Source of the DNA: a virus
IMG/VR virus record: IMGVR_UViG_3300003322_000872
Location: 612-64,611 of that record
Length of the DNA stretch: 64,000 nt
Direction: 5' to 3' (one strand)
Shown: piece by piece, positions 28,747-60,437 of the stretch
How positions within the stretch are numbered: the first letter of the stretch is position 1
Layout: every line of letters starts with the position of its first letter
The notes under the pieces: generated by a model
Database searches by the model: none
What the model was told of the DNA's origin: nothing
The model's input: the letters and a program-made list of their open reading frames with translations, nothing else
Made by a program: the position numbers and the translations under genes

Positions 28747-28826
28747 TAGCTCAATGGTAGAGCACTTGCGTGTAGTGGCCACCCTGGACGCAAGGGTTGG
28801 AGGTTCGATTCCTCCCTATTCCACCA
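28740..28826 (+). tRNA. Atypical tRNA-like gene with a 20-nt anticodon loop; G3:U70 and A73 (Ala-type acceptor)
   Basis: Acceptor GGGGTAG/CTATTCC+ACCA; D arm GCTC-AATGGTA-GAGC; stem CTTGC/GCAAG; T arm GGAGG-TTCGATT-CCTCC. Confidence 0.8.
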
Positions 28827-28928
28827 ATAAAGGATCAACTAAATGCGCACCGCCACGCGTCACCTCATGGGCTGGGCAATTGTTATCACAGTTGTCGTAG
28901 CTCTCATCTTTCTATTCGGAGTCTAACC

Positions 28929-29520
28929 ATGCGTCTTACCAACGAACTTCGTACCAAGATCATCCGCTCGCTCATCGTCGATACGATGCAGGCCGAGTAC
29001 AACCGGATATGCAACGACAGCGCCAAATTTGCCGAGGAAGTGTACAATCTCGAAATCCCGGAATTTATCCGCGATTGTAGGGAGCAGGGCTGGTTCCCCA
29101 TAGCCAACAAGATGTACGTCTACAGCCGCGTCGAGCACGACTACCTGCATATGAATGGGGAGTTCATCATCTATCACACGGAGCCAACGCTTAACCGCGA
29201 GCGGATACAATGGCTCAAAGACCCACCGAACGTATCGCGGCAAGTGCCACACAAGCATTACAGCGACTTCCGAGTGTCTTTTAGCGGTGAACTTGCCGAC
29301 CGTTATGAGATTATCCGCGATCGGCGAAGAGTCGAGCAAGGTCAACGAGGCTATCCTCAAGGCCAAAACGATCGTCGAGAACTGCACCACGACCGAGCGA
29401 CTGTTGGATGCATGGCCTGAGATCGAGGCATATATCCCCATCCCCCCGGTCAAATCCCTCCCGATGCTGCCAATCAAGGAAGCGAACGCAATCTTCGGCC
29501 TTCCAAAAGTCGAGGCATGA
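28929..29520 (+). pseudogene. Nmad5-like (nucleotide-modification-associated domain 5) gene interrupted by a +1 frameshift near 29322
   Basis: N-terminal MRLTNELRTKII is in one frame; the family-typical C-terminus (CTTTERLLDAWPEIEAYIP...LP) is in the +1 frame. Confidence 0.65.
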
Positions 29521-48222: not shown

Positions 48223-48996
48223 CTATAGCTTTAATTCGCCTTGCGAACGTAGCCAATGTGCAGCAGTATGTCTTGCATCGACATCGACCTTATCTGGATT
48301 CTTTACGACCCATTCAAGATAATCCTTTGGAACTACACGCCACTCCATATCCCTATACTTCTTTAGCCGACAAATACGCTGAAGTACAGGCAAATTTGGA
48401 TCGGATAATCTTGCAAGCTCTTCGATTGGCTTGAGTTCTAGCATCTTCAACAAGATTTCAGTCGTGATGATAACGTCGAACAATGCCCGATGCGGCGCGA
48501 CAGCTTCCGCCGGTAGGTCCGGGGGGACGTAGAAGTTGCGGCCAATGCCCAGGTAATAGCGGAGCTTCTGGTTGCCATAACCGGGTGCGTCGGGATAGAG
48601 GTGGGCCGCGATCCGGTATGTGTCCAACCACCGCGCCGGGTCAGCATAGCGCGTGCCGAGTCGGCACAAGAACCCCCGGTCAAACACAGCATTGTGTGCC
48701 ACCCAATAGTCGGGATCACCGCCGAGCTCTTCATGGGCGGTTTTGATCATCTCAGCTGGTGATGGACAATCGGCTACATCCTCGTCCATGATATGATGAG
48801 TCGCCATTGCATCCACCGGGATTGGCTTGCCGGGGTTACACATCCAACTGTGATATCGCTCATGGCACCAACCGATATCTTTGTCATGGACAATATCGTG
48901 GCAGGCGTATTCAACCAGAGACTCTTGCTCGGGCTCGGTGCCGGTGGTTTCCGTATCGATAATTCTAAGTCGCATCTGCTTTCCTCTCCAGATCAT
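48223..48996 (-). CDS. DEDDh 3'-5' exonuclease (ExoX-like)
   Basis: IIDTETTG, HNAVFD, LDT and HRALFDV; C-terminal KYRD..W..VPKDYLEW. Confidence 0.9.
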   Translation of the reverse strand: MIWRGKQMRLRIIDTETTGTEPEQESLVEYACHDIVHDKDIGWCHERYHSWMCNPGKPIPVDAMATHHIMDEDVADCPSPAEMIKTAHEELGGDPDYWVAHNAVFDRGFLCRLGTRYADPARWLDTYRIAAHLYPDAPGYGNQKLRYYLGIGRNFYVPPDLPAEAVAPHRALFDVIITTEILLKMLELKPIEELARLSDPNLPVLQRICRLKKYRDMEWRVVPKDYLEWVVKNPDKVDVDARHTAAHWLRSQGELKL

Positions 48997-49785: not shown

Positions 49786-51801
49786 TCATGCAGCCTTCCG
49801 CATCTCAAAAATCTCGCGGTTGCCCTTGCCTCTGTTACGCCGGACCTCTTCGAAAGATAGGGGTTCGGCTTTTTTGTATTCCTCGATCTCTTGGGATGCC
49901 TGACCCCAATTCCATCCATATTGAAGATCAACCTTCATCGGCACCTTAAGGTGCACGACATCGCGCATTATCTCGGCAAACAACGTACCTGTCTTGGCGT
50001 CCCCGATTGGTGCGCATAGCTCATCGTGCATCTGTAGAGCTGGTAGGATACCTGCGCGATAGCACGCTAGCATGGCTAGTTTTGTCTGCCGCGCGGCGGA
50101 GCCTTGGATAAGCCGGTTCATAGCCTTATGCGTAAATGCGCGCCGTAGTCGCTGCCCTGGCCATTGAACACGGGCCTGCTCTATCGGCATGGGTGGCTTG
50201 TATTCGGACTCCTCATCGCGCCATGCCAGCTCATACATATCGAACCGGCAGCGCGCACCATCCAGCAACCGGATATAGCCACGGTTATTAGCCCGCCGCG
50301 AGCAGAACTCGGCCAGCTTCTTAACGAACGGCATACGGATATGATACTGGGCAACGATCTCCTTAGCCTCATCGATCGGAATACCCAGCGACACAGCCAA
50401 CTTAAACAGGCCCATGCCGTACATCAGGCCGAGGTTGATGATCTTGGCCTTCTTACGCTCAATCCCGGTAAGCTCGGCCACCATCGTATGGAAGTCAGCA
50501 TCGGGATTGTTCATGTAGTAATCAACCGCCGCCGTAGACCCCTCCAATTCACACAGGGCGGAGAAGTGAACAGCGAGGCGTGGCTCTTGCTGGCTATAGT
50601 CGCCCGAAGCCCAAAGTGTGTCGAGCTCCGGAAGGAATATCCCCCGGACCAGCGGCGATAGAACCGGATCGCGCCCAGGCATTTGCTGCAACGGGGGATT
50701 GCTGTAGCTAAATCGGAACGATCGAGTGCCACCATCATCGTCCCTAAGCTGATGCACTTCGGCGTGAATGCGACCAAAATGCGTGGAGCCTAGCAGGTAG
50801 CCTCCAATGAACTTTTCAGACATGTTGTTGTATTCACGAGCCGATGCCACCAATCGCGGTAGCCAGTGCTCATGCTTTTCCATCCAGTCCGACTGGAAGC
50901 TACCCTTCTGGGTCTTCGGTGTCTTGGTGTACGGCACCTGCTCTTGCTGGAATGCGCGTTCGAGCGATCCGGGCGAGTTCGCATGCTCCATCGTAAACTG
51001 GCCCCATCCAAGGTTACGGGCCAGCTCATTTAATATCTCATCGCGTTTGGCACGTAGCTGCGCCATGGTGCCGTCAGCCGCGTTTTCATCGATCGGGATG
51101 CCCCGCTTACGCATAGCGAGGACCATGGGGACCAGATCGCATTCCAACCGGTATGCGGCTGTTAAATCCTGCGCATGGATTTCCCCGAGCATGTCTTCCG
51201 CCGCAAGTAGCGTGGAGACCGCGTCTTGTTCGGCATATCCACCGACATGACGAGCCGGGAGTTTGTACATTTCAGCTTTTGGATCGATGCCAAAAGCCGC
51301 CGCTGCTTCGCGAAGAGCATCCTCATCCTTACCGGGGACACCACGCCAACGGCAGATAGCATCCAAGGAATAGGACAATCGATTTTCATCGAGTAATACC
51401 GCCATTGCATGTGTGTCATCTGCCTTGTCGGATGGTATTTGGACGTCTTCGGTTGATAAGCCGCCTTCGTCGTACGAGCGATTTTGAAAGTATACCCGTT
51501 TAGCATTATCGAGGACAGACTGGAGCCAACGGAAGGCTTCGTCGGACGGAAAATTACGGGAGTCAGGATGTCGGACAGGAATGTATGTTGATTTGACTTC
51601 ATTGTTAACCTTCCATGCCAGCGAAAAACCGGCGACATAAAAGTCTTCGTCATTAAATACCCAGCCCGGACCCCTCTTCTTTAGCAGGACGTCCTTGGTT
51701 TCAGTATCCAACGCCACGGGTATCCCACGCGGGATCGTGGGATAATCCTTGGGTTCCTGCCACTTTGTTTCCGGTTCAAATAGGATAAGTTGATCAGACA
51801 A
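49786..51801 (-). CDS. polA: Family A DNA polymerase with 3'-5' exonuclease (Leu762 type)
   Basis: ALDTETK exo I; motif A SGDYSQQEPRL; motif B RKKAKIINLGLMYG; motif C QMHDEL. Confidence 0.95.
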   Translation of the reverse strand: MSDQLILFEPETKWQEPKDYPTIPRGIPVALDTETKDVLLKKRGPGWVFNDEDFYVAGFSLAWKVNNEVKSTYIPVRHPDSRNFPSDEAFRWLQSVLDNAKRVYFQNRSYDEGGLSTEDVQIPSDKADDTHAMAVLLDENRLSYSLDAICRWRGVPGKDEDALREAAAAFGIDPKAEMYKLPARHVGGYAEQDAVSTLLAAEDMLGEIHAQDLTAAYRLECDLVPMVLAMRKRGIPIDENAADGTMAQLRAKRDEILNELARNLGWGQFTMEHANSPGSLERAFQQEQVPYTKTPKTQKGSFQSDWMEKHEHWLPRLVASAREYNNMSEKFIGGYLLGSTHFGRIHAEVHQLRDDDGGTRSFRFSYSNPPLQQMPGRDPVLSPLVRGIFLPELDTLWASGDYSQQEPRLAVHFSALCELEGSTAAVDYYMNNPDADFHTMVAELTGIERKKAKIINLGLMYGMGLFKLAVSLGIPIDEAKEIVAQYHIRMPFVKKLAEFCSRRANNRGYIRLLDGARCRFDMYELAWRDEESEYKPPMPIEQARVQWPGQRLRRAFTHKAMNRLIQGSAARQTKLAMLACYRAGILPALQMHDELCAPIGDAKTGTLFAEIMRDVVHLKVPMKVDLQYGWNWGQASQEIEEYKKAEPLSFEEVRRNRGKGNREIFEMRKAA

Positions 51802-52528
51802 TTTCCATTTCCCCGGCTTCTATAGCAGCAGGAGTCCCGTAAGAATGCATAGGTGTCCAGCCACTATAGCCATCCAGCCGTTCTGGTAAAAGATTGAGCG
51901 CGCCGGAAAGATAGAACTCGCCGTTGGTATGGCGAATATCGGAGCGTATCTGTTCGGCGATGGCTTTGTGGATCGATCCTGCACGATTAAACCGCCAGAA
52001 ACCAGATTGTGCCCAGCTGCCAATACGGTTCTTCTCGGCCACCTCTAAAACTCTATTAACGTCGTCTTTATCCAGACGAACATAGCTATAGATCGGATCA
52101 CCTTGTGGGTGATGATGGACCATGGTAAGGTTGGCATTAGTCGACAAGAACTTAGCCACGGTGTTCGGATGAAACTCCACGTCGCAGTCTGTAATCGCCA
52201 CCGGCTTAGCCGCATTAAGCCCCAACAACCCTCGCAGGACAGTGTGCGATTGACCTTCAGTTTCCCCGGCGATCGATAAAATCTCAACCCGGCCGAGGTC
52301 TTCTTTGAAAATATCAGCAAACCGGTGGTAAAGTTCCTGGGGAACGATGATCCGAATTTGCCAGTCCAACGGAATAGACCATGCAATCCGCTTGATAATT
52401 GGAGCCGAGCTATCCCGCCCGCGCTCCCTTACGTTGATAAGAGCCTTATGTTCTTGATAGCCAGCAGCCTTAAACCGTTCCGACCGACCCATCGCCGGAA
52501 TGATTACCGTACCAGAATAGCTGTCCAT
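51794..52528 (-). CDS. Sugar-phosphate nucleotidyltransferase (NTP_transferase, GT-A fold)
   Basis: IIPAMGRSERF..AGY..HK.LI, GQSHT, DCD, YSYV...VAEK.RI, EFYLS, GTP. Confidence 0.85.
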   Translation of the reverse strand: MDSYSGTVIIPAMGRSERFKAAGYQEHKALINVRERGRDSSAPIIKRIAWSIPLDWQIRIIVPQELYHRFADIFKEDLGRVEILSIAGETEGQSHTVLRGLLGLNAAKPVAITDCDVEFHPNTVAKFLSTNANLTMVHHHPQGDPIYSYVRLDKDDVNRVLEVAEKNRIGSWAQSGFWRFNRAGSIHKAIAEQIRSDIRHTNGEFYLSGALNLLPERLDGYSGWTPMHSYGTPAAIEAGEMEIV

Positions 52529-52971
52529 TTTGTATCTTCCCTTACTCGCTGGATTGTTCTAAGGCTGTCATCAAAATAACAGCCTGGTTCTTCTTGGCCG
52601 TTAAGCCAGTCGATTTTATCTTGGAGTGTTTTACCCCAACGGATATCGGCCGAACCTAACACAGGAAAAGTGTCACGAACAGCATTAACAGTGGCTTCCG
52701 ACGCTGATGTTAGAATCGTCCCACCATTGTTTATCCAGAGCTGCATAACTGGTCCTGGCTTACCTAGCATGCGAATATAATGAGCTGTTATCCAACCTTT
52801 ACGCTGATGGACAGATTCATCGGTCCATTCGCTCCAATGTCGCTCATAGAAATCCTTTGGAGGCTTTACACCGAGAGACTCATAAGCCCACTCGTTAGCG
52901 GCCTTTGTATCAACGATGGTCCCATCCAAGTCCCAAACGAGCTTCATTTTCCAGCCCCAGTACCTTTCCAA
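52504..52971 (-). CDS. HAD-superfamily phosphatase
   Basis: WDLDGT motif I; ILTSAS motif II; K; YFDDS motif IV. Confidence 0.85.
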   Translation of the reverse strand: MERYWGWKMKLVWDLDGTIVDTKAANEWAYESLGVKPPKDFYERHWSEWTDESVHQRKGWITAHYIRMLGKPGPVMQLWINNGGTILTSASEATVNAVRDTFPVLGSADIRWGKTLQDKIDWLNGQEEPGCYFDDSLRTIQRVREDTKWTAILVR

Positions 52972-53656
52972 TCTCGATAGCGACTAACGACGCCCATTTA
53001 CCGAGCGCTGTTACACGGTTATTGTAAGTAGACTCCCGGTATACGATCCGAATAAAATGCATCATACACCAGAACATAGTCCGCCGCAGGGTATTCTCGT
53101 TCATCCCATGGAAGGGATTAAACTGCACATACCCATTGTACAGGAAATCCTCCTTATGTTCATTGGGCGATCCCGCCATGTAGTAGAGCGCTTGCTCCCA
53201 TCCAAGAAACGACTGCATTACCTTCCCTCGGTCCACCGAGGGGTACGGGGGGATGCCGTTTCCGGCTGGCCAAGGATCGATAAAGCGCATGAGTCGCCCA
53301 TTCCAGCGCATGTTGGCTAGTGTCGGGTCGCCGTGGGTAAGGCATGGCTCTTCGTCGATCCACTGCGGCACATTAAAGCTAAATCGTTGCAGAAACCGTT
53401 TGCGCCATTCTCGATGATCGAAAGGGTAGGGATTTGACCGCACCCAGACATGATCTTCGAGGGTCTCCATGCCACGGCACAACAGATCGTGCTCCACCCT
53501 TAAGGGCAGATACTCCATGACGATGAAGCCCTGATCCGAGTTGAATTCGCATCGACCCGTGTGGTAGACATTGGGCGCGATCGACCCCAACAGCTTATTG
53601 TGGGCAACCTCAGTCTCGATCTCCTGATATGGGCCTTCCTTGAGCATCACGGGCAT
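52910..53656 (-). CDS. APH/choline-kinase-like small-molecule phosphotransferase (ORF extends to 53884)
   Basis: IVMEYLP hinge; Brenner-type HGDPTLAN; RFIDP. Confidence 0.78.
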   Translation of the reverse strand: MPVMLKEGPYQEIETEVAHNKLLGSIAPNVYHTGRCEFNSDQGFIVMEYLPLRVEHDLLCRGMETLEDHVWVRSNPYPFDHREWRKRFLQRFSFNVPQWIDEEPCLTHGDPTLANMRWNGRLMRFIDPWPAGNGIPPYPSVDRGKVMQSFLGWEQALYYMAGSPNEHKEDFLYNGYVQFNPFHGMNENTLRRTMFWCMMHFIRIVYRESTYNNRVTALGKWASLVAIEIGKVLGLENEARLGLGWDHR

Positions 53657-54512
53657 CACGGTCGACTTTGACCGGCCGAGGATGTCCGCTGGAGATGAGT
53701 GCTTTCTGCCAGTAGACAACGACTTCTTTACGGGGATGTCCTTTATAAGCTCGATCGACGACGCGCACAAGGCCGGGATGGAGTCTTGCAAGTTTTTCTG
53801 CGTCAGCATCGCTGCTCTCCGTTGTGCGCTCGTCGCTAGCCCCGCCGGGGGCGGCATAGGATTTTTGGCCGACGGCGAAATCATTGGTAAGGACGTTCGG
53901 ATGGCCGCGCTTTAAGAGCTGGAGCGCGACATCCATATCTTCGCGGGTATCGATGCGATCGAACTCTGCGTCTGCCATCACAGTAGGAACATGATAGGCC
54001 AGCGCAAGCATCATCCGATTGCCGCCGGTAAGCCATCCGCCATGGCACTTGTCGTTGCCCTGTCGAGGGCCGAAGCCACCATGCGGAACCTCCGGAGTGA
54101 TCCGCTCCATGAGCTCGTTGATCCAGAAGTTGGTGTGATCGGGATCGGAGTCCAGAAGCCGCCAGTCACCCTTTACCTCCTTGTGCTTCCAGAACCGCGA
54201 CGTCTCCGACCAATAACGATAATAGAAGAACAAATCATCGTCGAGCATCAAGATTTTTTCGAAGCCGTTATCGACTGCGTACCGCATCATCCAAGCACGC
54301 TTGGCAGCAATCCGCATGTTGTCATCTGGTTGAGGAACAACCCAGAGATTACTGTAACCGCGATCGTTAGCCAGCCGGACAAGGTGATCAGCTTCCGATC
54401 TCGGACAAAACATGAACGTCCTGGTCCGCAGCTCCGGCGACAGCGACATAAGCGTCTGCTGGTTTAGCACTCGCCCGCGCGTTGGGATAAAAATTTTGAA
54501 GTTGTCCATCAT
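53610..54512 (-). CDS. GREB1/TAGT-like (base-J glucosyltransferase-related) GT-A glycosyltransferase
   Basis: IFIPTRGR, KRAW, LMLDDDL, REDMD..LQ.L..G, APGG, HPG.V, WQKA. Confidence 0.8.
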   Translation of the reverse strand: MMDNFKIFIPTRGRVLNQQTLMSLSPELRTRTFMFCPRSEADHLVRLANDRGYSNLWVVPQPDDNMRIAAKRAWMMRYAVDNGFEKILMLDDDLFFYYRYWSETSRFWKHKEVKGDWRLLDSDPDHTNFWINELMERITPEVPHGGFGPRQGNDKCHGGWLTGGNRMMLALAYHVPTVMADAEFDRIDTREDMDVALQLLKRGHPNVLTNDFAVGQKSYAAPGGASDERTTESSDADAEKLARLHPGLVRVVDRAYKGHPRKEVVVYWQKALISSGHPRPVKVDRDARDAQGRPISGDRD

Positions 54513-55348
54513 CAGTCCTTCGGCTTGAAGCGGGTGCCGGATGTTTCGCCCGAAGCATACCGACAATATTTGTCCCACTCACACAAGTTATGTTCGATTT
54601 CGAACATGGTCATCTGCGGGCCTAAGCGATCCCTCGCTTTGGCCAACAGATCATTAAGAGTAACCTGTAAATTCGGCGGAATTTCGATACCGACCGTTAC
54701 AGCGTTATCCCGACGTTCCTGGTTGGTCATAGGCTTGTAATTGCCCGCCATACGGGACAGTCCGCGTAGCGCGCCGGGGCCGATATAGGCCCACGACAAT
54801 TCGTCCTCGTACGGTCCCCATAGCCAACGCAGGTCTTGCATCGTTTGATAAGCGACGAATGGGCCGAGGCCTTGTTTCTTGAGAAGCAGAACCATTTCCT
54901 TGGCCGACGATCGCTTTGTTGGCTCCCAATCGATAATTCGCATTGTGAACCCGAAAAGCTTCTCAATCAAGGTCGCTACACCCGGACGATTGTAAAGTCC
55001 CCCCGGCACCATGATCCGATATGCATTAGAGAACAATGGTTTGGTATCCTCAAGGATTTTGAGAACATCCTTCTCGTTGAACCACTCTCCCTCTACAACC
55101 GCCTTTAACGAAGTGGTGCGGTTGAGTAGGCGAAAAAACAAAGCGGCATGAAGCTGTTTCAGACCATTTCCGCCAAGACCTAGAATATAATTCTTGGCCT
55201 CGACAGATGTCCTGTCATCATCGCGAATGACCGAACAGAACTTGTAGGTGTTGATCACCTGATCATCCGACCATGGCCGGGGGGAGCCTTCCTTCCGGCG
55301 GTCAGTCGCGGCCTGTCGCCGCACCATGTATTCTACAATGTCGATCAT
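54512..55348 (-). CDS. aGPT-Pplase / amino acid:DNA transferase-like protein (paralogue 2)
   Basis: PWSDDQVINTYKFCSV.RDDDRT...FRLLN...GPF.AYQ...DL...GPGALRGL...EH.LCEWDKY. Confidence 0.85.
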   Translation of the reverse strand: MIDIVEYMVRRQAATDRRKEGSPRPWSDDQVINTYKFCSVIRDDDRTSVEAKNYILGLGGNGLKQLHAALFFRLLNRTTSLKAVVEGEWFNEKDVLKILEDTKPLFSNAYRIMVPGGLYNRPGVATLIEKLFGFTMRIIDWEPTKRSSAKEMVLLLKKQGLGPFVAYQTMQDLRWLWGPYEDELSWAYIGPGALRGLSRMAGNYKPMTNQERRDNAVTVGIEIPPNLQVTLNDLLAKARDRLGPQMTMFEIEHNLCEWDKYCRYASGETSGTRFKPKD

Positions 55349-55863
55349 GCTCGATTTCCATCACCGCCAAGGATATTGGCTTCCGGCGGCTCGCTCCACT
55401 TCTTCATGAACTCTGGCATATCCGACTCCGGTGCTGGCTCTTCAAGGTTAATTGCCTCGACGATTGCTTTGTCCAAATCCTGATCCCGCTTGGACTCGGC
55501 GATCTTGGCAAACCGAACCACTGCCTCCCGCCGCGATATATTCCAGGCCACTGCCAAGGCGGCGAAGACATCCTTGGTGATGTCGAGAGGATAGACCGGC
55601 TCGGTACAACGATCGGATGCCAATGTGGCATATCCGGCGATATCGTTCCAGTGGTCGGGCTCATTCGGATTGCCGGCGAGAATACGCGACAACTTGTGGA
55701 CGATCATATAGCAGGCATGGCGCTTGGTGTCGTCCAAGATCGGCCAGTTCGATTGGCCCATCAGGATACGCATCATATCCCATGTCGCCGCCGAGTTCTC
55801 GCTGTATTCACCATGCGTACCGGCGCGCGTATTGATCAGTTCTTGTGGGGTTACAGTTCCCAT
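55345..55863 (-). CDS. DUF6378-family protein
   Basis: RAGTHGEY...HKLSRI..GNP...DHW.DIAGYA. Confidence 0.8.
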   Translation of the reverse strand: MGTVTPQELINTRAGTHGEYSENSAATWDMMRILMGQSNWPILDDTKRHACYMIVHKLSRILAGNPNEPDHWNDIAGYATLASDRCTEPVYPLDITKDVFAALAVAWNISRREAVVRFAKIAESKRDQDLDKAIVEAINLEEPAPESDMPEFMKKWSEPPEANILGGDGNRA

Positions 55864-56435
55864 AATGCGATCCTCTTCTTTACATATTGCGATGCTCGTG
55901 CGGCAATCGCTACTTTGAATTGCTCCTCATCGGTCGGGGTTATTTTGGTCCCCACTAACCAACATTGTTCAAGTCGCTCCTCTACCACCTTCCGGCAGCG
56001 GAGAGCGACAAGCCGGGCAAATACGTTGCCCAGCAATTTCTCTTCCTCGCCCCATTCCCACATCTCGATGAATTCGGCGAGCTTAACAGCCCATTTTTCG
56101 TCGGCTGTTACGTCGGGGCCAAGATGCAGGAAGCCCTGCATCCATTGCTCTTGAAGTGACTCCTCCTCCACCCGGTTCATGCCGCCCGCGATATCCGGGT
56201 TATTAGCCTTTACAGGATAGGGTGCGTCGCCGGTCTTAATCTCGCCGCAGTCGTGGCGCACAACGTATGCCATCACATGCGCCGGAACGTCCGGCCAAAT
56301 GCAGAGTAGGATGCGAAGGAGCTGCCAGCTGTGCTCGGCGACAGACTGCTCCTTGATATGTGGCCATGTGTGGTAACGAGAAACCCGTCCGGCCAAGCGG
56401 GCATCATCACGGACTTGTGGAACAATATCGGTCAT
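55851..56435 (-). CDS. HD-domain (YfbR/DatZ-like) deoxynucleotide phosphohydrolase
   Basis: RYHT...QSVAEHS...HD.GE..TGD.P.P.K. Confidence 0.85.
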   Translation of the reverse strand: MTDIVPQVRDDARLAGRVSRYHTWPHIKEQSVAEHSWQLLRILLCIWPDVPAHVMAYVVRHDCGEIKTGDAPYPVKANNPDIAGGMNRVEEESLQEQWMQGFLHLGPDVTADEKWAVKLAEFIEMWEWGEEEKLLGNVFARLVALRCRKVVEERLEQCWLVGTKITPTDEEQFKVAIAARASQYVKKRIALWEL

Positions 56436-56800
56436 TTGACCTCCTCATAGGTCGCCGCGAAAATATCAGGCTTGCACGGATAATGCTCACCCTTCATTCC
56501 GGTGATGATCCAGTCGCCGGGGCAGACAATATGTCCGCCCTCCAGCGTGTCGATCCAGCCGTGATAATGCATTCGAATCCCGCAATATTTACAGGCCCAC
56601 TCACAATCGACTGCAGGGGAGCGATAATATCGAACAATCTCGCCCTCCCAGCCAAGAACCTTGGCTTCAGCACCCGATATTGTGGTGGGTTGATCATCTT
56701 CGATGGCAGGACGATCGTTGGCATAATCGAGTGGGTGGTCGCCGTTCTTAAACCACTGGGTGGCCTCGATCTCAACAGGCTTCTTGCGATATTTGGTCAT
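56432..56800 (-). CDS. Conserved phage protein (KKPVEIEA...GDWII..GE.YPCKPDIF family)
   Basis: Family-typical N- and C-terminal motifs. Confidence 0.8.
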   Translation of the reverse strand: MTKYRKKPVEIEATQWFKNGDHPLDYANDRPAIEDDQPTTISGAEAKVLGWEGEIVRYYRSPAVDCEWACKYCGIRMHYHGWIDTLEGGHIVCPGDWIITGMKGEHYPCKPDIFAATYEEVK

Positions 56801-57930
56801 TTCATCCTCACATCGTCAAAGCGACGAAGCTCCTTGTTCATGCGGCGCGTTATCCACTGGGACGCTGCGATCTTCCAATCAGTCCATTCGCCCTCCTTCA
56901 GCATGGAGAGCGCCTTGCGGTGGTCTTCGCGCCATGCATCGTGCAAGTGTAGCATTGGCTTGGCGATATCATGGAACCAGCCTGAATAGGCCGTTTCCTT
57001 GCCCTCGATGAATTCCTCGCACTGAACGATAAAGTCTTTCGCCGCATCCCGCACTCGCTTGCGGCCGTCGACAGACTTGTAATAATAGTCAGAGTCCATA
57101 CCAAGCAGCGATCGGGGCTGTGCCATTCCATATGTGTACGGGTCCATTGTATCAACCGGCGGCCACACCTGATCGAGGACGTTGAGATAGACGTGGAAAT
57201 TGTTGGAGACTTGATAATATTTACCAAGTCGCATCCCGGCGAGCCCCGCCACTACTTCGGCCATAACCGACATGTGGACAGCATTAGCCCCGTATGTCCC
57301 CCATACTACATCATTCGACCGGCACGACACCGTAGTGTCTAGTTCCCACACAGAGTCCATAGCATTCCATCGACCCCGGAACATAACAAGGTCATTACAG
57401 GGGATATCCTTCTTCTTGGCCCCAAGGTCTATCGCCGGGTCCCACATAGCCATGACCGCTTGGCGCGACAAGGGATCGTTGAAGAGGATTTCACCGCACA
57501 ACGAAATCTGGTCGACCGGGGGGAATTCCCACATTGCGATCTCGTTGCCTTGAGAGTCAGACGTGCTTTCGCCGACACGAACAGCCTCCCCCCGGAAATG
57601 CTTCCGCCAACGATAGCCATATGCACCGTGGGCTTCACCATTGTCCTCGGCGAACCGCGAGGAGAAGTCCTTGACGAACCGATCGAGGTAGGTGGCATCG
57701 CGCCGCCCCGCCAGCATCCAGATCGACTCGAACAAATGAAAGAACGGATTGGCATCCCGATTCGGCTCGAACAATACCCGCTCGTTCGGCCGATAGTAAA
57801 CAGTTGTAACCGGCTCGGACGAAACCAATACATCCCCTGCTCTTGAGGAGCTACGCGATCCACTATGGATGAGGTGCTCCATACCTGCTTTGTATGCGTC
57901 GTTCACATTCCGAGCTTTGATTACATGCAT
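56797..57930 (-). CDS. Thymidylate-synthase homologue, probable dUMP hydroxymethyltransferase
   Basis: ANPFFHLFE..WMLAG, GAYGYRW, catalytic DIPCN, RSNDVVWGTYGAN (Asn implies dUMP specificity), NNFHVY. Confidence 0.88.
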   Translation of the reverse strand: MHVIKARNVNDAYKAGMEHLIHSGSRSSSRAGDVLVSSEPVTTVYYRPNERVLFEPNRDANPFFHLFESIWMLAGRRDATYLDRFVKDFSSRFAEDNGEAHGAYGYRWRKHFRGEAVRVGESTSDSQGNEIAMWEFPPVDQISLCGEILFNDPLSRQAVMAMWDPAIDLGAKKKDIPCNDLVMFRGRWNAMDSVWELDTTVSCRSNDVVWGTYGANAVHMSVMAEVVAGLAGMRLGKYYQVSNNFHVYLNVLDQVWPPVDTMDPYTYGMAQPRSLLGMDSDYYYKSVDGRKRVRDAAKDFIVQCEEFIEGKETAYSGWFHDIAKPMLHLHDAWREDHRKALSMLKEGEWTDWKIAASQWITRRMNKELRRFDDVRMK

Positions 57931-57948
57931 CTGCTATCTCCTTCTTTG

Positions 57949-58554
57949 CTATCGTCGGGCAGCTCTCTGCCAATACTTACGTCGTATCAGTGTTAATGGT
58001 ATCTCAATTTCGTGCCCGTCGATCAACGCAATTACACTGTCCGATTTGGTTTCTAATACTAATGCGACGAGGTCATCATGCGTAAGGTAGTCTCCTGGAT
58101 TTGGAGTAGGTCCGGGCCAGATTACTGTAATATGTGGCGTTTCCTTCCAACAAAATTGGTGATACCACTCCCAATCCTGATCAAGTAAGAACTGCCTATG
58201 TGAAGCATGTAGTTGATCCCAACCCAACCATGGTGGTGGCCTATACGGGCCAAGAACAAGCTGGGGATCGCTATATCCCATTTCTTTCGCCAACTTCTCC
58301 GTCTGTGGCACATAGTAGTTATCGAGGAATCCTCGACGTAACCATTCTGTATTAAGACACTTCATATATTTGAGTAGAGCAGGTTCATACCCGCGCCACA
58401 TCTGGGATACAATGTTATAGGAGGCTTTGGTCTCCTTCTCTGGCGATAACACCATGAGATAGTACATGCAAATCGTACGCTGCCGGGATAGCTCTGGTGA
58501 ACTAAAACAATGCGCCGACATAGCGAAGTTTGGATAAGGCAACAGAGTAATCAT
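57949..58554 (-). CDS. Pyrimidine-dimer-glycosylase-like protein (MSMEG_6728 type)
   Basis: TLLPYP.F..SA...L..QR, MWRGYE.AL..Y....EW..RG, PPWLG...HASHR..L. Confidence 0.72.
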   Translation of the reverse strand: MITLLPYPNFAMSAHCFSSPELSRQRTICMYYLMVLSPEKETKASYNIVSQMWRGYEPALLKYMKCLNTEWLRRGFLDNYYVPQTEKLAKEMGYSDPQLVLGPYRPPPWLGWDQLHASHRQFLLDQDWEWYHQFCWKETPHITVIWPGPTPNPGDYLTHDDLVALVLETKSDSVIALIDGHEIEIPLTLIRRKYWQRAARR

Positions 58555-58967
58555 TCTGTCGCCCTGTAATACAACTCCTCCATCAAAATCTCGGCTGCAG
58601 CCTGATTATATTTGTTGTCGTAGAACGACGTGTATTTACCAGGTGCGGGTATCATCCCGATCGGGCCACGCAAACACAGCTTGGGGAACGTATCCAAACC
58701 AGTCGCGCGGCGACAACCCTCCCCTACAAGAACGAGGATATCACATTCATGTAATATCTCGCCCTCGATTTCTTGCCAACGATCGACAGCCTCTACCGGC
58801 TGCCAAGCGCCATAAAATAGGCATTTGCGCTTGAACACGCGTAAATAATCCTCCTCGCTAACATCTACCCTCTCCCGCAACAGCGAAAGAAGGTCTATAT
58901 CTATCGGAGTAAGGGCCTCACCCTCCTCCGGTGCGATATCTCCGAGGATCATCACTCGTTCAACCAT
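58551..58967 (-). CDS. Hypothetical protein, possibly UDG-like fold
   Basis: VMILGDIAP...ILVLVGE...IPAPG...Y pattern loosely resembles UDG-superfamily motifs. Confidence 0.4.
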   Translation of the reverse strand: MVERVMILGDIAPEEGEALTPIDIDLLSLLRERVDVSEEDYLRVFKRKCLFYGAWQPVEAVDRWQEIEGEILHECDILVLVGEGCRRATGLDTFPKLCLRGPIGMIPAPGKYTSFYDNKYNQAAAEILMEELYYRATE

Positions 58968-59478
58968 GGCCGACGCCGCTCTTAGCGGCTACCGGGCCGC
59001 GCTCTTGATTTTGATACTTTCCAGTATCGGGATAAGCCTGTTCGGTCGGCTCGTCCAGACGATGGAAGATTACTTGAGCGATCGGGGTGCCGGCGACCAG
59101 TTTTGTCCTCGTGTACTCGGTTCCGGGCCAAAACTTTTCCCACATCTGCCGATTAACTGGGATATTGCATGATATCTCCAGTGTAAGAAATCCGGACCAC
59201 CCAGGCTCTGCCACTGTATTCTGTACTGCGATCCCGCGCCGCGCCCATGTAGACTTGTCGTGGATGATCCCAACCACATCTGTCGGCATGTGGAAGCGTT
59301 CCATCGTCGAGGCCAGTGTAAAGCCGCCCGGTTCGATGACGATATCCTGATCCAGCCGCAGATCATATCCACAGGCCGATAGGCCAAAACTGCAGCCAGA
59401 CTCCGGATGTTGCTGGCGCTCAACCATGGGATCGAGCAGCTTAAGGCGACGGATAGTTTGTGCAGAAAGAATGGTCAT
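58960..59478 (-). CDS. dcd: dCTP deaminase
   Basis: GLSACGYDLRL, DKSTWARRG, AEPGWSGFLTLE, IAQVIF, KYQNQ. Confidence 0.9.
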   Translation of the reverse strand: MTILSAQTIRRLKLLDPMVERQQHPESGCSFGLSACGYDLRLDQDIVIEPGGFTLASTMERFHMPTDVVGIIHDKSTWARRGIAVQNTVAEPGWSGFLTLEISCNIPVNRQMWEKFWPGTEYTRTKLVAGTPIAQVIFHRLDEPTEQAYPDTGKYQNQERGPVAAKSGVGHG

Positions 59479-60395
59479 TTGAACCTCTGTCTCGGGGCAC
59501 CTTCCCCGGTTTTCACCCGCATATATTTATCGAGTTCGCAAAGCGAATGCTCGATATCCCGCATTTCCAGGGACGGCCACTCAGCGGGCCAGAGCTCACG
59601 ATCTTCGGACAAGAATAACAGCTGCCGCATTTCCTCGATAAATTTGGCCTTGGGTTGCTTGAACTTAAGATCGCGGCCGAGTAGCCGGTTAAGACCACGC
59701 ATCGCGCCGGGGCCAGGATTGGCCCACGTCATGATGTCGGGAGCCTTGTTAAGCAGAGGCGTATGGCGGAGATCGGTTACGATCTCATAGGCCATGAAGT
59801 CACCGAGGTAGGGAAACTGACGGAGCCAATACCATACATCTTCAAGCTTCATATTGTCTTCAATAAGCATACGAACAGTGGCCCCCTTCCAATCATATGC
59901 TTCGCTCATGGGAAAATGCCTATAGAACGTATAAAATTGCTCAACGCACCACAGTACACCATCCAACTTAGATTTCCCATCCGGGGTCTTGATAATATAC
60001 GACCCTGTCACATACGGACCCTTACCGCAGTAACTGACAAGAGCCGATCGGATCGCGCCGGTATTCCCCCCGGACCCGACAAATTCGTCCCACGCGGTGG
60101 CACCGGGGGGAGACGTGTCCATGCGAGTTTGATCAAAGATGGCTTCTCCGGCTGCGATCCGGTTAAACCAGCGAAAGAGGACAGTGGCAAGCAATACATT
60201 ATCCACTGGCACTCTTTTGCGGACATGTTCGCGCAGCCAGATCGTGGTGCGATCTAACTCACGGAACACATTACAGAAGCGATATTCCTGGAAAATCGGA
60301 TCGTTGGTCCATTGCCCGCGCGGCAACCCGGCCTGCCGATTTAGATAAATCTGGTGGCGAGCGCGCATGTAGTCAAAGAGGGGCGAGGCGTCCAT
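59475..60395 (-). CDS. aGPT-Pplase / amino acid:DNA transferase-like protein (paralogue 1)
   Basis: ATG 60395 with SD AGGAG; RHQIY..R..G.P...WT.DPI...YRFCNVFRELDRTT...FRWFN...TG.YII...G.FMAYEIVTDL...GPGA.RGL...EH.LCE.DKY. Confidence 0.9.
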   Translation of the reverse strand: MDASPLFDYMRARHQIYLNRQAGLPRGQWTNDPIFQEYRFCNVFRELDRTTIWLREHVRKRVPVDNVLLATVLFRWFNRIAAGEAIFDQTRMDTSPPGATAWDEFVGSGGNTGAIRSALVSYCGKGPYVTGSYIIKTPDGKSKLDGVLWCVEQFYTFYRHFPMSEAYDWKGATVRMLIEDNMKLEDVWYWLRQFPYLGDFMAYEIVTDLRHTPLLNKAPDIMTWANPGPGAMRGLNRLLGRDLKFKQPKAKFIEEMRQLLFLSEDRELWPAEWPSLEMRDIEHSLCELDKYMRVKTGEGAPRQRFK

Positions 60396-60437
60396 CGGTG
60401 ATCTCCTGTTTAGATCGTTTATGCCGTATGAGGTCAT

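Follow-up and report, generated by a model that had tools for sequence, protein, structure and literature searches.

Work on thymidine hypermodification in bacteriophages has so far centred on two partners, a P-loop kinase for 5-hydroxymethyldeoxyuridine (5-hmdU) in DNA (5-HMUDK) and a transferase of aGPT-Pplase clade 2. The characterised transferases M6 gp51, PaMx11 gp46, ViI gp247 and PhiW-14 gp109 (PMC8989533) belong to clade 2, as does the diamine transferase DADT of SH-Ab 15599, whose activity has also been shown (PMC8989533, PMC13458397). Clade-2 activity requires 5-phosphomethyl-dU (PMC8989533). Second paralogues, known from a published table, are PhiW-14 gp72, ViI gp160, M6 gp55 and the C-terminal domain of SP10 gp186, the last being a clade-1 domain fused to a kinase (PMC5889632 Table 3). 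M6 gp55, which is positioned like the clade-1 gene gp50 of PaMx11, is dispensable for in-vitro reconstitution (PMC8989533), and aGPT-Pplase1 without a detectable 5-HMUDK has been reported for RP13, EP_H11 and IME92 (PMC13697223). Here we analyse a 64,000-nucleotide stretch of viral DNA (the window), bases 612–64611 of the 77,484-bp IMG/VR record IMGVR_UViG_3300003322_000872 (CheckV completeness 100%), which carries two clade-1 paralogues in a single operon and no 5-HMUDK. Our proposal is that this operon produces 5-hydroxymethyluracil (hmU) in DNA and then tailors it by a sugar branch and by a kinase-independent branch that depends on the two paralogues; as a whole, we give it an even chance of being right.

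Two clade-1 paralogues and no 5-hmdU DNA kinase

The initial annotation had described two divergent aGPT-Pplase paralogues flanking genes for a dCTP deaminase, an Asn-type thymidylate synthase (TS) homologue, an HD hydrolase and a DUF6378 protein. This layout was confirmed: Pfam matches and the TS motifs bear out the intervening genes, and both paralogues, which share 25% identity, are members of PF18723 encoded on the minus strand. Copy A (P0001; 59475–60395, –; Pfam E 1.8e-47; old name aGPT-Pplase clade 1) scored 162.5 bits over profile positions 7–277 of 281, and copy B (P0002; 54512–55348, –; Pfam E 9.3e-33) 114.2 bits over positions 7–279, the cut-off being 25 bits. A profile search of the genome found exactly these two copies. 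P0001 is 46.7% identical to PhiJL001 gp19 and 43.7% identical to PaMx11 gp50, and the homologues of P0002 at 40–68% identity are all PF18723. No other family matched either protein at E ≤ 10. In particular, PF18724 matched neither of them, nor anything else in the whole genome, while PaMx11 gp46, used as a positive control, scored 97 bits against this profile. Both proteins lack a Walker A motif, and phmmer searches of each against PDB sequences returned nothing relevant. Upstream, the P0001 reading frame stays open as far as an ATG at 60437, but the gene probably begins at 60395, judging by a related-phage orthologue that starts at the corresponding Met.

PF18723 is the former aGPT-Pplase clade 1 and PF18724 the former clade 2. 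When PaMx11 was put through the same search, the crystallised glycine:DNA transferase gp46 fell into PF18724 (‘ADDT’) and gp50 into PF18723 (‘HMUDK_hel’), and the kinase gp49 matched AAA_33 and, weakly, PF18748 (‘HMUDK_HMUD1’). The name ‘HMUDK_hel’ most likely derives from SP10 gp186, in which the PF18723 domain is fused behind the kinase; the corresponding Pfam label, ‘5-hmdU DNA kinase, helical domain’, is misleading for most members of the family. Thus, the premise that transferases of this kind act on a product of 5-HMUDK, taken as established in the initial annotation, holds for clade 2 and does not carry over to the window genes, both of which are clade 1. RefSeq calls PaMx11 gp49 (L001, 6426–6995), an experimentally shown 5-hmdU DNA kinase, ‘terminase small subunit’, and the same name is attached to the PF18723 gene in the record of Pseudomonas phage PAKlein3 (hits H16 and H45); both look like propagated misannotations.

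The absence of a Walker A kinase from 51.8–60.4 kb, noted at the outset, was confirmed and extends to the entire 77,484-bp record. A regular expression for the motif, run over all open reading frames (ORFs) of at least 40 amino acids, matched among real genes only a 506-aa helicase, located beyond the window, and the terminase. A phmmer search of every ORF of the genome with PaMx11 gp49 gave no match, and six-frame genome searches with PF18748, PF18751, PF13671 and a profile made from 15 sequences of GTSGSGK[ST]-type 5-HMUDK kinases (A3) returned nothing at E ≤ 10. The suggestion that the kinase is encoded outside the window therefore fails: by the regular expression and the four profiles, no canonical 5-HMUDK lies anywhere in this genome. 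Tet_JBP is absent from it as well. The string ADIRWGKT in a HAD-like ORF (52504–52971) was rejected as a candidate P-loop, as it is not conserved among orthologues; PhiJL001 gp18 (L002, 8589–9044) and this HAD-like protein have ADIRW in common, probably by chance. PF18749 and PF18750 were rejected as kinase families, being SNAD3 and SNAD4.

We then asked how often PF18723 genes of other phages are accompanied by a kinase. An IMG/VR pattern scan from P0002 alone gave no match and an alignment was needed; the alignment-based scan returned at least 599 matched stretches, 586 of them confirmed relatives. The best 80 loci of subclade A, the subclade to which P0001 belongs (see below), were analysed, and gene content was scored with hidden Markov models built from the window and reference phages. 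A TS homologue was found within 10 kb in 77 of these 80 loci, and a GTSGSGK[ST]-type kinase in 16. Twelve loci contained a gene for a TAGT-family DNA glycosyltransferase, and none of the twelve contained the kinase. At the level of whole records the kinase was present in 18 of 80; among those at least 90% complete it was present in 7 of 21, leaving 14 without it. Ten complete kinase-less genomes searched with PF18748, PF18751 and AAA_33 gave nothing save one weak AAA_33 match (E 0.003, within a 514-aa frame of G036), and three kinase-positive control genomes scored positive in the same check. The kinase-less state is the majority condition for PF18723 and no peculiarity of this phage. Tandem 5-hmdU kinase genes were seen in two loci (L069, 1230–2362; L090, 6205–7331), an arrangement reminiscent of the paralogous ViI kinases gp67 and gp243.

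A mirror sample of the 80 best clade-2 (ADDT) loci gave a different picture, with the kinase present in 77. Among ADDT loci of at least 15 kb, both the TS homologue and PF18723 were present in 39, TS alone in one and neither in two; for the TS-only locus, as for a similar 14-kb locus, PF18723 was found elsewhere in the complete genome. L154, one of the pair of loci that have neither gene, belongs to a complete 40-kb genome with terminal repeats (G051, IMGVR_UViG_3300042398_000608) that encodes ADDT, the kinase and Tet_JBP but lacks both a TS homologue and PF18723; we conclude that it makes hmU via the Tet_JBP dioxygenase. Given the locus counts in the two 80-locus samples, ADDT goes with the kinase, and PF18723 goes with the TS homologue.

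Subclades, fold and conserved residues of PF18723

A tree of 48 PF18723 sequences resolved two groups, each with SH-aLRT support of 100%. Subclade A contains P0001, PaMx11 gp50 and PhiJL001 gp19, and subclade B contains P0002 and its homologues; the placement of two sequences, L089a and L090a, is less sure because their branches are long. The initial annotation had called for a phylogeny of the paralogues against aGPT-Pplase clades 1–3. The tree covers PF18723, into which both copies fall, no third family having matched at E ≤ 10. All two-copy cases found pair one A with one B: the window, a relative on 24 contigs with the operon as in the window (L005/L006), L089, whose locus has the A and B genes side by side and no kinase, and L090, which additionally encodes ADDT and two kinases. 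The initial annotation had taken the presence of two paralogues to suggest two sequence contexts or two modified bases. Judging by the tree, the two copies are old subclades, found together as A+B pairs in phages unrelated to one another, and no recent duplication. Two close relatives, L008 and L093, do without copy B. Because these retain the rest of the operon, we regard subclade A as the core gene and subclade B as an accessory one.

The AlphaFold2 (AF2) model of P0001 (pLDDT 95) is all-helical, with a fold like that of helix-hairpin-helix (HhH) glycosylases. Foldseek alone found no match to this model at E ≤ 0.001 and weak ones only. On a second look, the best solved match was the clade-2 transferase PUGT, that is, PaMx11 gp46 (8z2n; Z 11.1 over 225 residues, rmsd 4.2), followed by a queuine-salvage glycosylase-like enzyme and then by HhH DNA glycosylases at Z 7–10 (Mag1 at Z 9.6; AlkA, EndoIII, OGG1 and MutY at Z 7–9). 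A profile alignment (hhalign) placed E296 and C300 of P0001 onto E243 and C247 of PaMx11 gp46, matching E-H-x-L-C-E with E-T-x-L-C. In gp46 Cys247 acts as a clamp on the flipped base, and Glu243 as a ligand of the metal at O4 (PMC11472151); M6 gp51 and ViI gp247 are inactivated by mutation of the Cys or of the nearby Glu (PMC8989533).

Twelve residues (R59, D62, R89, Y217, D222, G242, G244, R247, C300, E301, K304 and R307) do not vary among 43 sequences, the two window copies among them, so P0002 retains every one. Of the positions in subclade A, 47 reach at least 90% conservation and carry the identical residue in the 16 kinase-linked and the 64 kinase-less loci; no catalytic position distinguishes the two sets. 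Residues 233 and 287 were considered as markers of kinase linkage and rejected, since they are weak and non-catalytic, and P0001 has the ‘kinase-group’ residue at both. Because the conserved residues are the same whether or not the genome encodes a kinase, the enzyme probably acts alike in both settings, which would favour an unphosphorylated substrate.

The operon and its probable sugar genes

Both paralogues belong to a chain of minus-strand genes that spans 46.4–60.4 kb of the window, from copy A down to a ribonucleotide reductase gene. A megablast search with the 10-kb cluster gave no match among GenBank phages. Next to copy A lies a dCTP deaminase/dUTPase-like (DCD-like) gene (58960–59478, –; PF22769 5.9e-18, PF00692 2.8e-06), which occupies the equivalent position in L005, L009, L010 and L093 and whose product may supply dUMP precursors. 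It is followed by a gene for a 138-aa protein (58551–58967, –) for which Pfam and PHROG searches gave no family, and by a gene for a T4 endonuclease V-like pyrimidine-dimer DNA glycosylase (57949–58554, –; PF03013 4e-05). A PF03013 gene stands at the equivalent place in L093, and unnamed genes for 196- and 209-aa proteins stand there in L005 and L008; the endonuclease V-like gene counts among the conserved genes of the hmU operon.

The TS homologue (56797–57930, –; PF00303 1.8e-17, phrog_5131 1.5e-89) is 42% identical to PaMx11 gp51. Its PCN motif, with the catalytic Cys, the RSND motif and the GAN motif, whose Asn216 is the uracil-type residue, are invariant. The protein may be a dUMP hydroxymethylase making 5-hmdUMP, a type of enzyme in which water, and not hydride, resolves the methylene. 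Between this gene and copy B are genes for a 122-aa phage protein (56432–56800, –; phrog_419 9e-32, no Pfam family), for a YfbR-like HD-domain nucleotidase (55851–56435, –; PF12917 1.5e-08, PF13023 6.7e-07) and for the DUF6378 protein (55345–55863, –; PF19905 4.2e-08). In almost every related locus the HD gene comes after the TS gene, and the nucleotidase may remove competing nucleotides of the dTTP/dUTP type.

Downstream of copy B are four genes that we assign to a sugar branch: a TAGT-family (GT-A) DNA glycosyltransferase (53610–54578, –; PF20691 2e-21, phrog_842 1e-41), which probably starts near 54512; a small-molecule kinase of the aminoglycoside phosphotransferase (APH)/choline-kinase fold (52910–53884, –), recognised by its HGDPTLAN and IDP motifs and by an AF2 fold match; a 155-aa phosphatase or mutase of the HAD superfamily (52504–52971, –) with DLDGT, conserved Ser and YFDDS motifs; and a nucleotidyltransferase like NDP-sugar pyrophosphorylases (51794–52528, –; PDB 4evw 6e-08 over residues 8–214, PF12804 weak). 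Next comes the family A DNA polymerase gene polA (PolA; 49786–51801, –; PF00476 2.5e-44), which ends the module; beyond it the chain continues with an RNase_T exonuclease and the ribonucleotide reductase. The Pfam match of PolA is restricted to residues 248–634, its N-terminal 247 residues having no named domain, and the separate RNase_T-type exonuclease gene (48223–48996, –) lies two genes downstream. Elsewhere in the window, the sole Nmad5 (PF18757) homologue of the genome (28929–29505, +) is broken across two frames, with profile positions 1–90 in ORF 28797–29420 and positions 108–206 in ORF 29155–29520; a frameshift or an assembly error could explain this, as could decay of the gene.

The APH-like kinase keeps H140, G141, N147 and D159, in the HGDPTLAN loop and the IDP motif, invariant in 39 relatives. 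Its family counted 336 representatives at E ≤ 0.001 in a search among 1.84 billion, while an IMG/VR pattern scan with the APH-like alignment (A1) gave no match. Pfam APH (PF01636) matched it at 17 bits, below the cut-off of 23.2, and weak APH matches were found in 14 of the 39 relatives. The AF2 model (pLDDT 88.5) matched best 3dxq, of the choline/ethanolamine kinase family (Z 13.8); APH(4) (Z 13.5), FN3K (Z 13.2), methylthioribose kinase and LicA followed, all within Z 12–14. All of these structural neighbours phosphorylate small molecules and, with 3dxq as the top match to the model, a substrate of the choline/ethanolamine type is conceivable. The glycosyltransferase and kinase ORFs overlap by up to 275 nt (53610–53884, –) in different frames; in L006 the two genes abut with no overlap. 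The N-terminus of the kinase is uncertain: the database gene call begins at 53647, which would drop the glycine-rich loop, yet relatives have a loop, LGHSGA, to which the upstream LGRSKST can be aligned.

HAD motifs I, II and IV of the 155-aa protein are kept across four lineages, its Pfam HAD matches being weak. The gene order glycosyltransferase, kinase, HAD, nucleotidyltransferase is kept in the window, L005/L006, L008 and L093. In Pyle et al., APH phosphotransferases figure among the sugar-modifying neighbours of phage DNA glycosyltransferases. Because the block persists in L008 and L093, where copy B is absent, its four genes most likely serve to make and use a sugar donor. A salvage route to UDP-MurNAc in Pseudomonas employs proteins of comparable type: the HAD phosphatase MupP, the APH-fold anomeric sugar kinase AmgK and the MobA-like uridylyltransferase MurU. 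We take the kinase, HAD and nucleotidyltransferase trio of the window to resemble MupP-AmgK-MurU, a likeness of folds and adjacency, and presume that a trio of these folds would convert a sugar phosphate to an NDP-sugar.

Proposed kinase-independent action on hmU, rival explanations and known systems

In the scheme that we propose, the phage would swap thymine for hmU prior to replication, with the DCD-like enzyme, the Asn-type TS homologue and the HD nucleotidase feeding hmdUTP to the phage PolA. Two branches would subsequently act on hmU in DNA. In one, the TAGT glycosyltransferase would use a donor that its neighbours, the APH-fold kinase, the HAD phosphatase and the NDP-sugar pyrophosphorylase, produce. 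The other would rely on PF18723 copies A and B, which have a base-flipping HhH glycosylase-like fold are homologous to the clade-2 transferases and both retain the Glu-x-x-x-Cys pair that is catalytic there. The PF18723 Cys would attack C6 of hmU, and the unactivated hydroxyl would be expelled with acid help to give an exocyclic-methylene intermediate, which a nucleophile or a reductant would resolve. Since the methylene would arise from the unactivated hydroxyl, no P-loop 5-hmdU DNA kinase would be required.

One product of such a reaction deserves mention, unlikely as we consider it: PF18723 proteins may be the missing kinase-independent enzymes for hmU in DNA, and in particular those that turn leftover hmU back to thymine within the polymer. 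We raise this because PF18723 tracks the TS route, in which hmU first takes the place of all thymine, and is absent from one complete genome with the Tet_JBP route. The hypermodified-base pathways reconstituted for M6, PaMx11 and ViI have been assigned to enzymes other than clade 1 (PMC8989533), and virion DNA of M6, ViI, PhiW-14 and SP10 contains thymine and no hmU; the conversion of hmU to thymine is therefore an orphan reaction, and clade 1 an orphan enzyme. A clade-2 enzyme yields thymidine with borohydride (PMC8989533), consistent with this reading, under which subclades A and B could divide between them either sites or reactions.

Several points weigh against kinase-independent chemistry. 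In the literature searched, no PF18723 (clade-1) protein has a demonstrated activity. Hydroxyl leaves poorly, and this presumably explains the need of clade 2 for phosphorylation; the SP10 fusion argues for a phosphorylated substrate in at least some clade-1 members. The link to clade 2 comes from homology at about 7–10% identity, with a structural Z of 11, moderate for an all-helical protein, and from one short motif aligned by hhalign with a probability of just 3%. The PF18723 and ADDT samples are the 80 best matches each and are not random, and the contrast with Tet_JBP, drawn from one complete genome and one fragment, amounts to a hint. Finally, kinase profiles might overlook a kinase of a different fold, and an enzyme of the host is conceivable.

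The initial annotation had suggested that the APH-like kinase (52910–53884) substitutes for 5-HMUDK, in which case this non-orthologous enzyme would phosphorylate hmU in DNA and PF18723 would displace the phosphate. It is the sole kinase in the operon, its catalytic motifs are intact, and it lies two genes downstream of copy B. However, its gene is always found between the glycosyltransferase and the HAD/nucleotidyltransferase genes, is kept in L008 and L093, where copy B is lacking, and is missing from 79 of the 80 best subclade-A loci, most of which are also without a P-loop kinase. PhiJL001 has PF18723 and TAGT with no APH-like kinase nearby, and the structural neighbours of the kinase are small-molecule enzymes only. 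A substitute of this kind is thus very unlikely. We consider it just as improbable that a kinase comes from the host, or from an unnamed phage ORF of unrecognised fold, with PF18723 acting on 5-phosphomethyl-dU like clade 2. The cluster does contain ORFs of no assigned family (58551–58967, 56432–56800 and the DUF6378 gene), and the SP10 fusion ties clade 1 to a kinase. Yet no small ORF of the genome has a P-loop motif, and no host hmU-DNA kinase was found in the literature searched. A hidden supplier would, moreover, be needed repeatedly, in 14 of the 21 near-complete genomes and in many environments, whereas clade-2 phages nearly always encode a kinase of their own (77 of the 80 best loci).

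It may also be that PF18723 proteins do not modify the base and are instead glycosylase-like maintenance or shielding factors for hmU-DNA that, for example, remove stray uracil or thymine or block host hmU glycosylases. Their fold is of the HhH DNA glycosylase type, and their linkage is to the replication module and to the TS homologue rather than to tailoring enzymes. Against this, the invariant Glu-x-x-x-Cys fits a transferase site and not the catalytic Asp of HhH-GPD enzymes, and PUGT is the top solved match; we regard such a role as quite improbable. Among the three options raised by the initial annotation (a kinase encoded elsewhere, the APH-like substitute, a different chemistry), kinase-independent PF18723 chemistry is the best supported, and we infer it from the linkages and conserved residues described above. 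The operon would then predict mixed DNA chemistry, glycosylated hmU together with a PF18723 product, in a group of soil phages without a cultured member. More generally, PF18723 is the steadier partner of the hmU-making TS homologue, mostly without a kinase and with its catalytic residues kept either way, which raises the question of its action on hmU-DNA without phosphorylation. This phage is one instance of a general and little-noticed pattern.

PaMx11 gp50 and PhiJL001 gp19 are full-length PF18723 proteins with 44–47% identity to copy A and identical invariant residues, and their genes adjoin TS homologue, HD and PolA genes as in the window. Where PaMx11 has, in addition, a P-loop 5-HMUDK and a clade-2 transferase, this phage has neither, and it carries an extra subclade-B copy. 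With the clade-2 transferases (PaMx11 gp46/PUGT, PDB 8z2m and 8z2n) the PF18723 proteins have in common an all-helical glycosylase-like fold, the Glu-x-x-x-Cys motif and a place in hmU pathways; they differ in sequence, with about 7% identity in the structural alignment, and in linkage, the kinase accompanying clade 2 in 77 of 80 loci versus 18 of 80 subclade-A records. Further parallels are PhiJL001-type phages and, among others, the IMG/VR loci L009, L010, L013 and L093, in which, as in the window, a PF18723 gene without a kinase has a TS homologue and a DNA glycosyltransferase for neighbours. A PF18723 gene is joined by APH-like, HAD and nucleotidyltransferase genes only in the window, L005/L006 and L093, and subclade B is added to this set only in the window and L005/L006. 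What sets this phage group apart is that it combines subclades A and B with a glycosyltransferase and with sugar-activation genes of its own.

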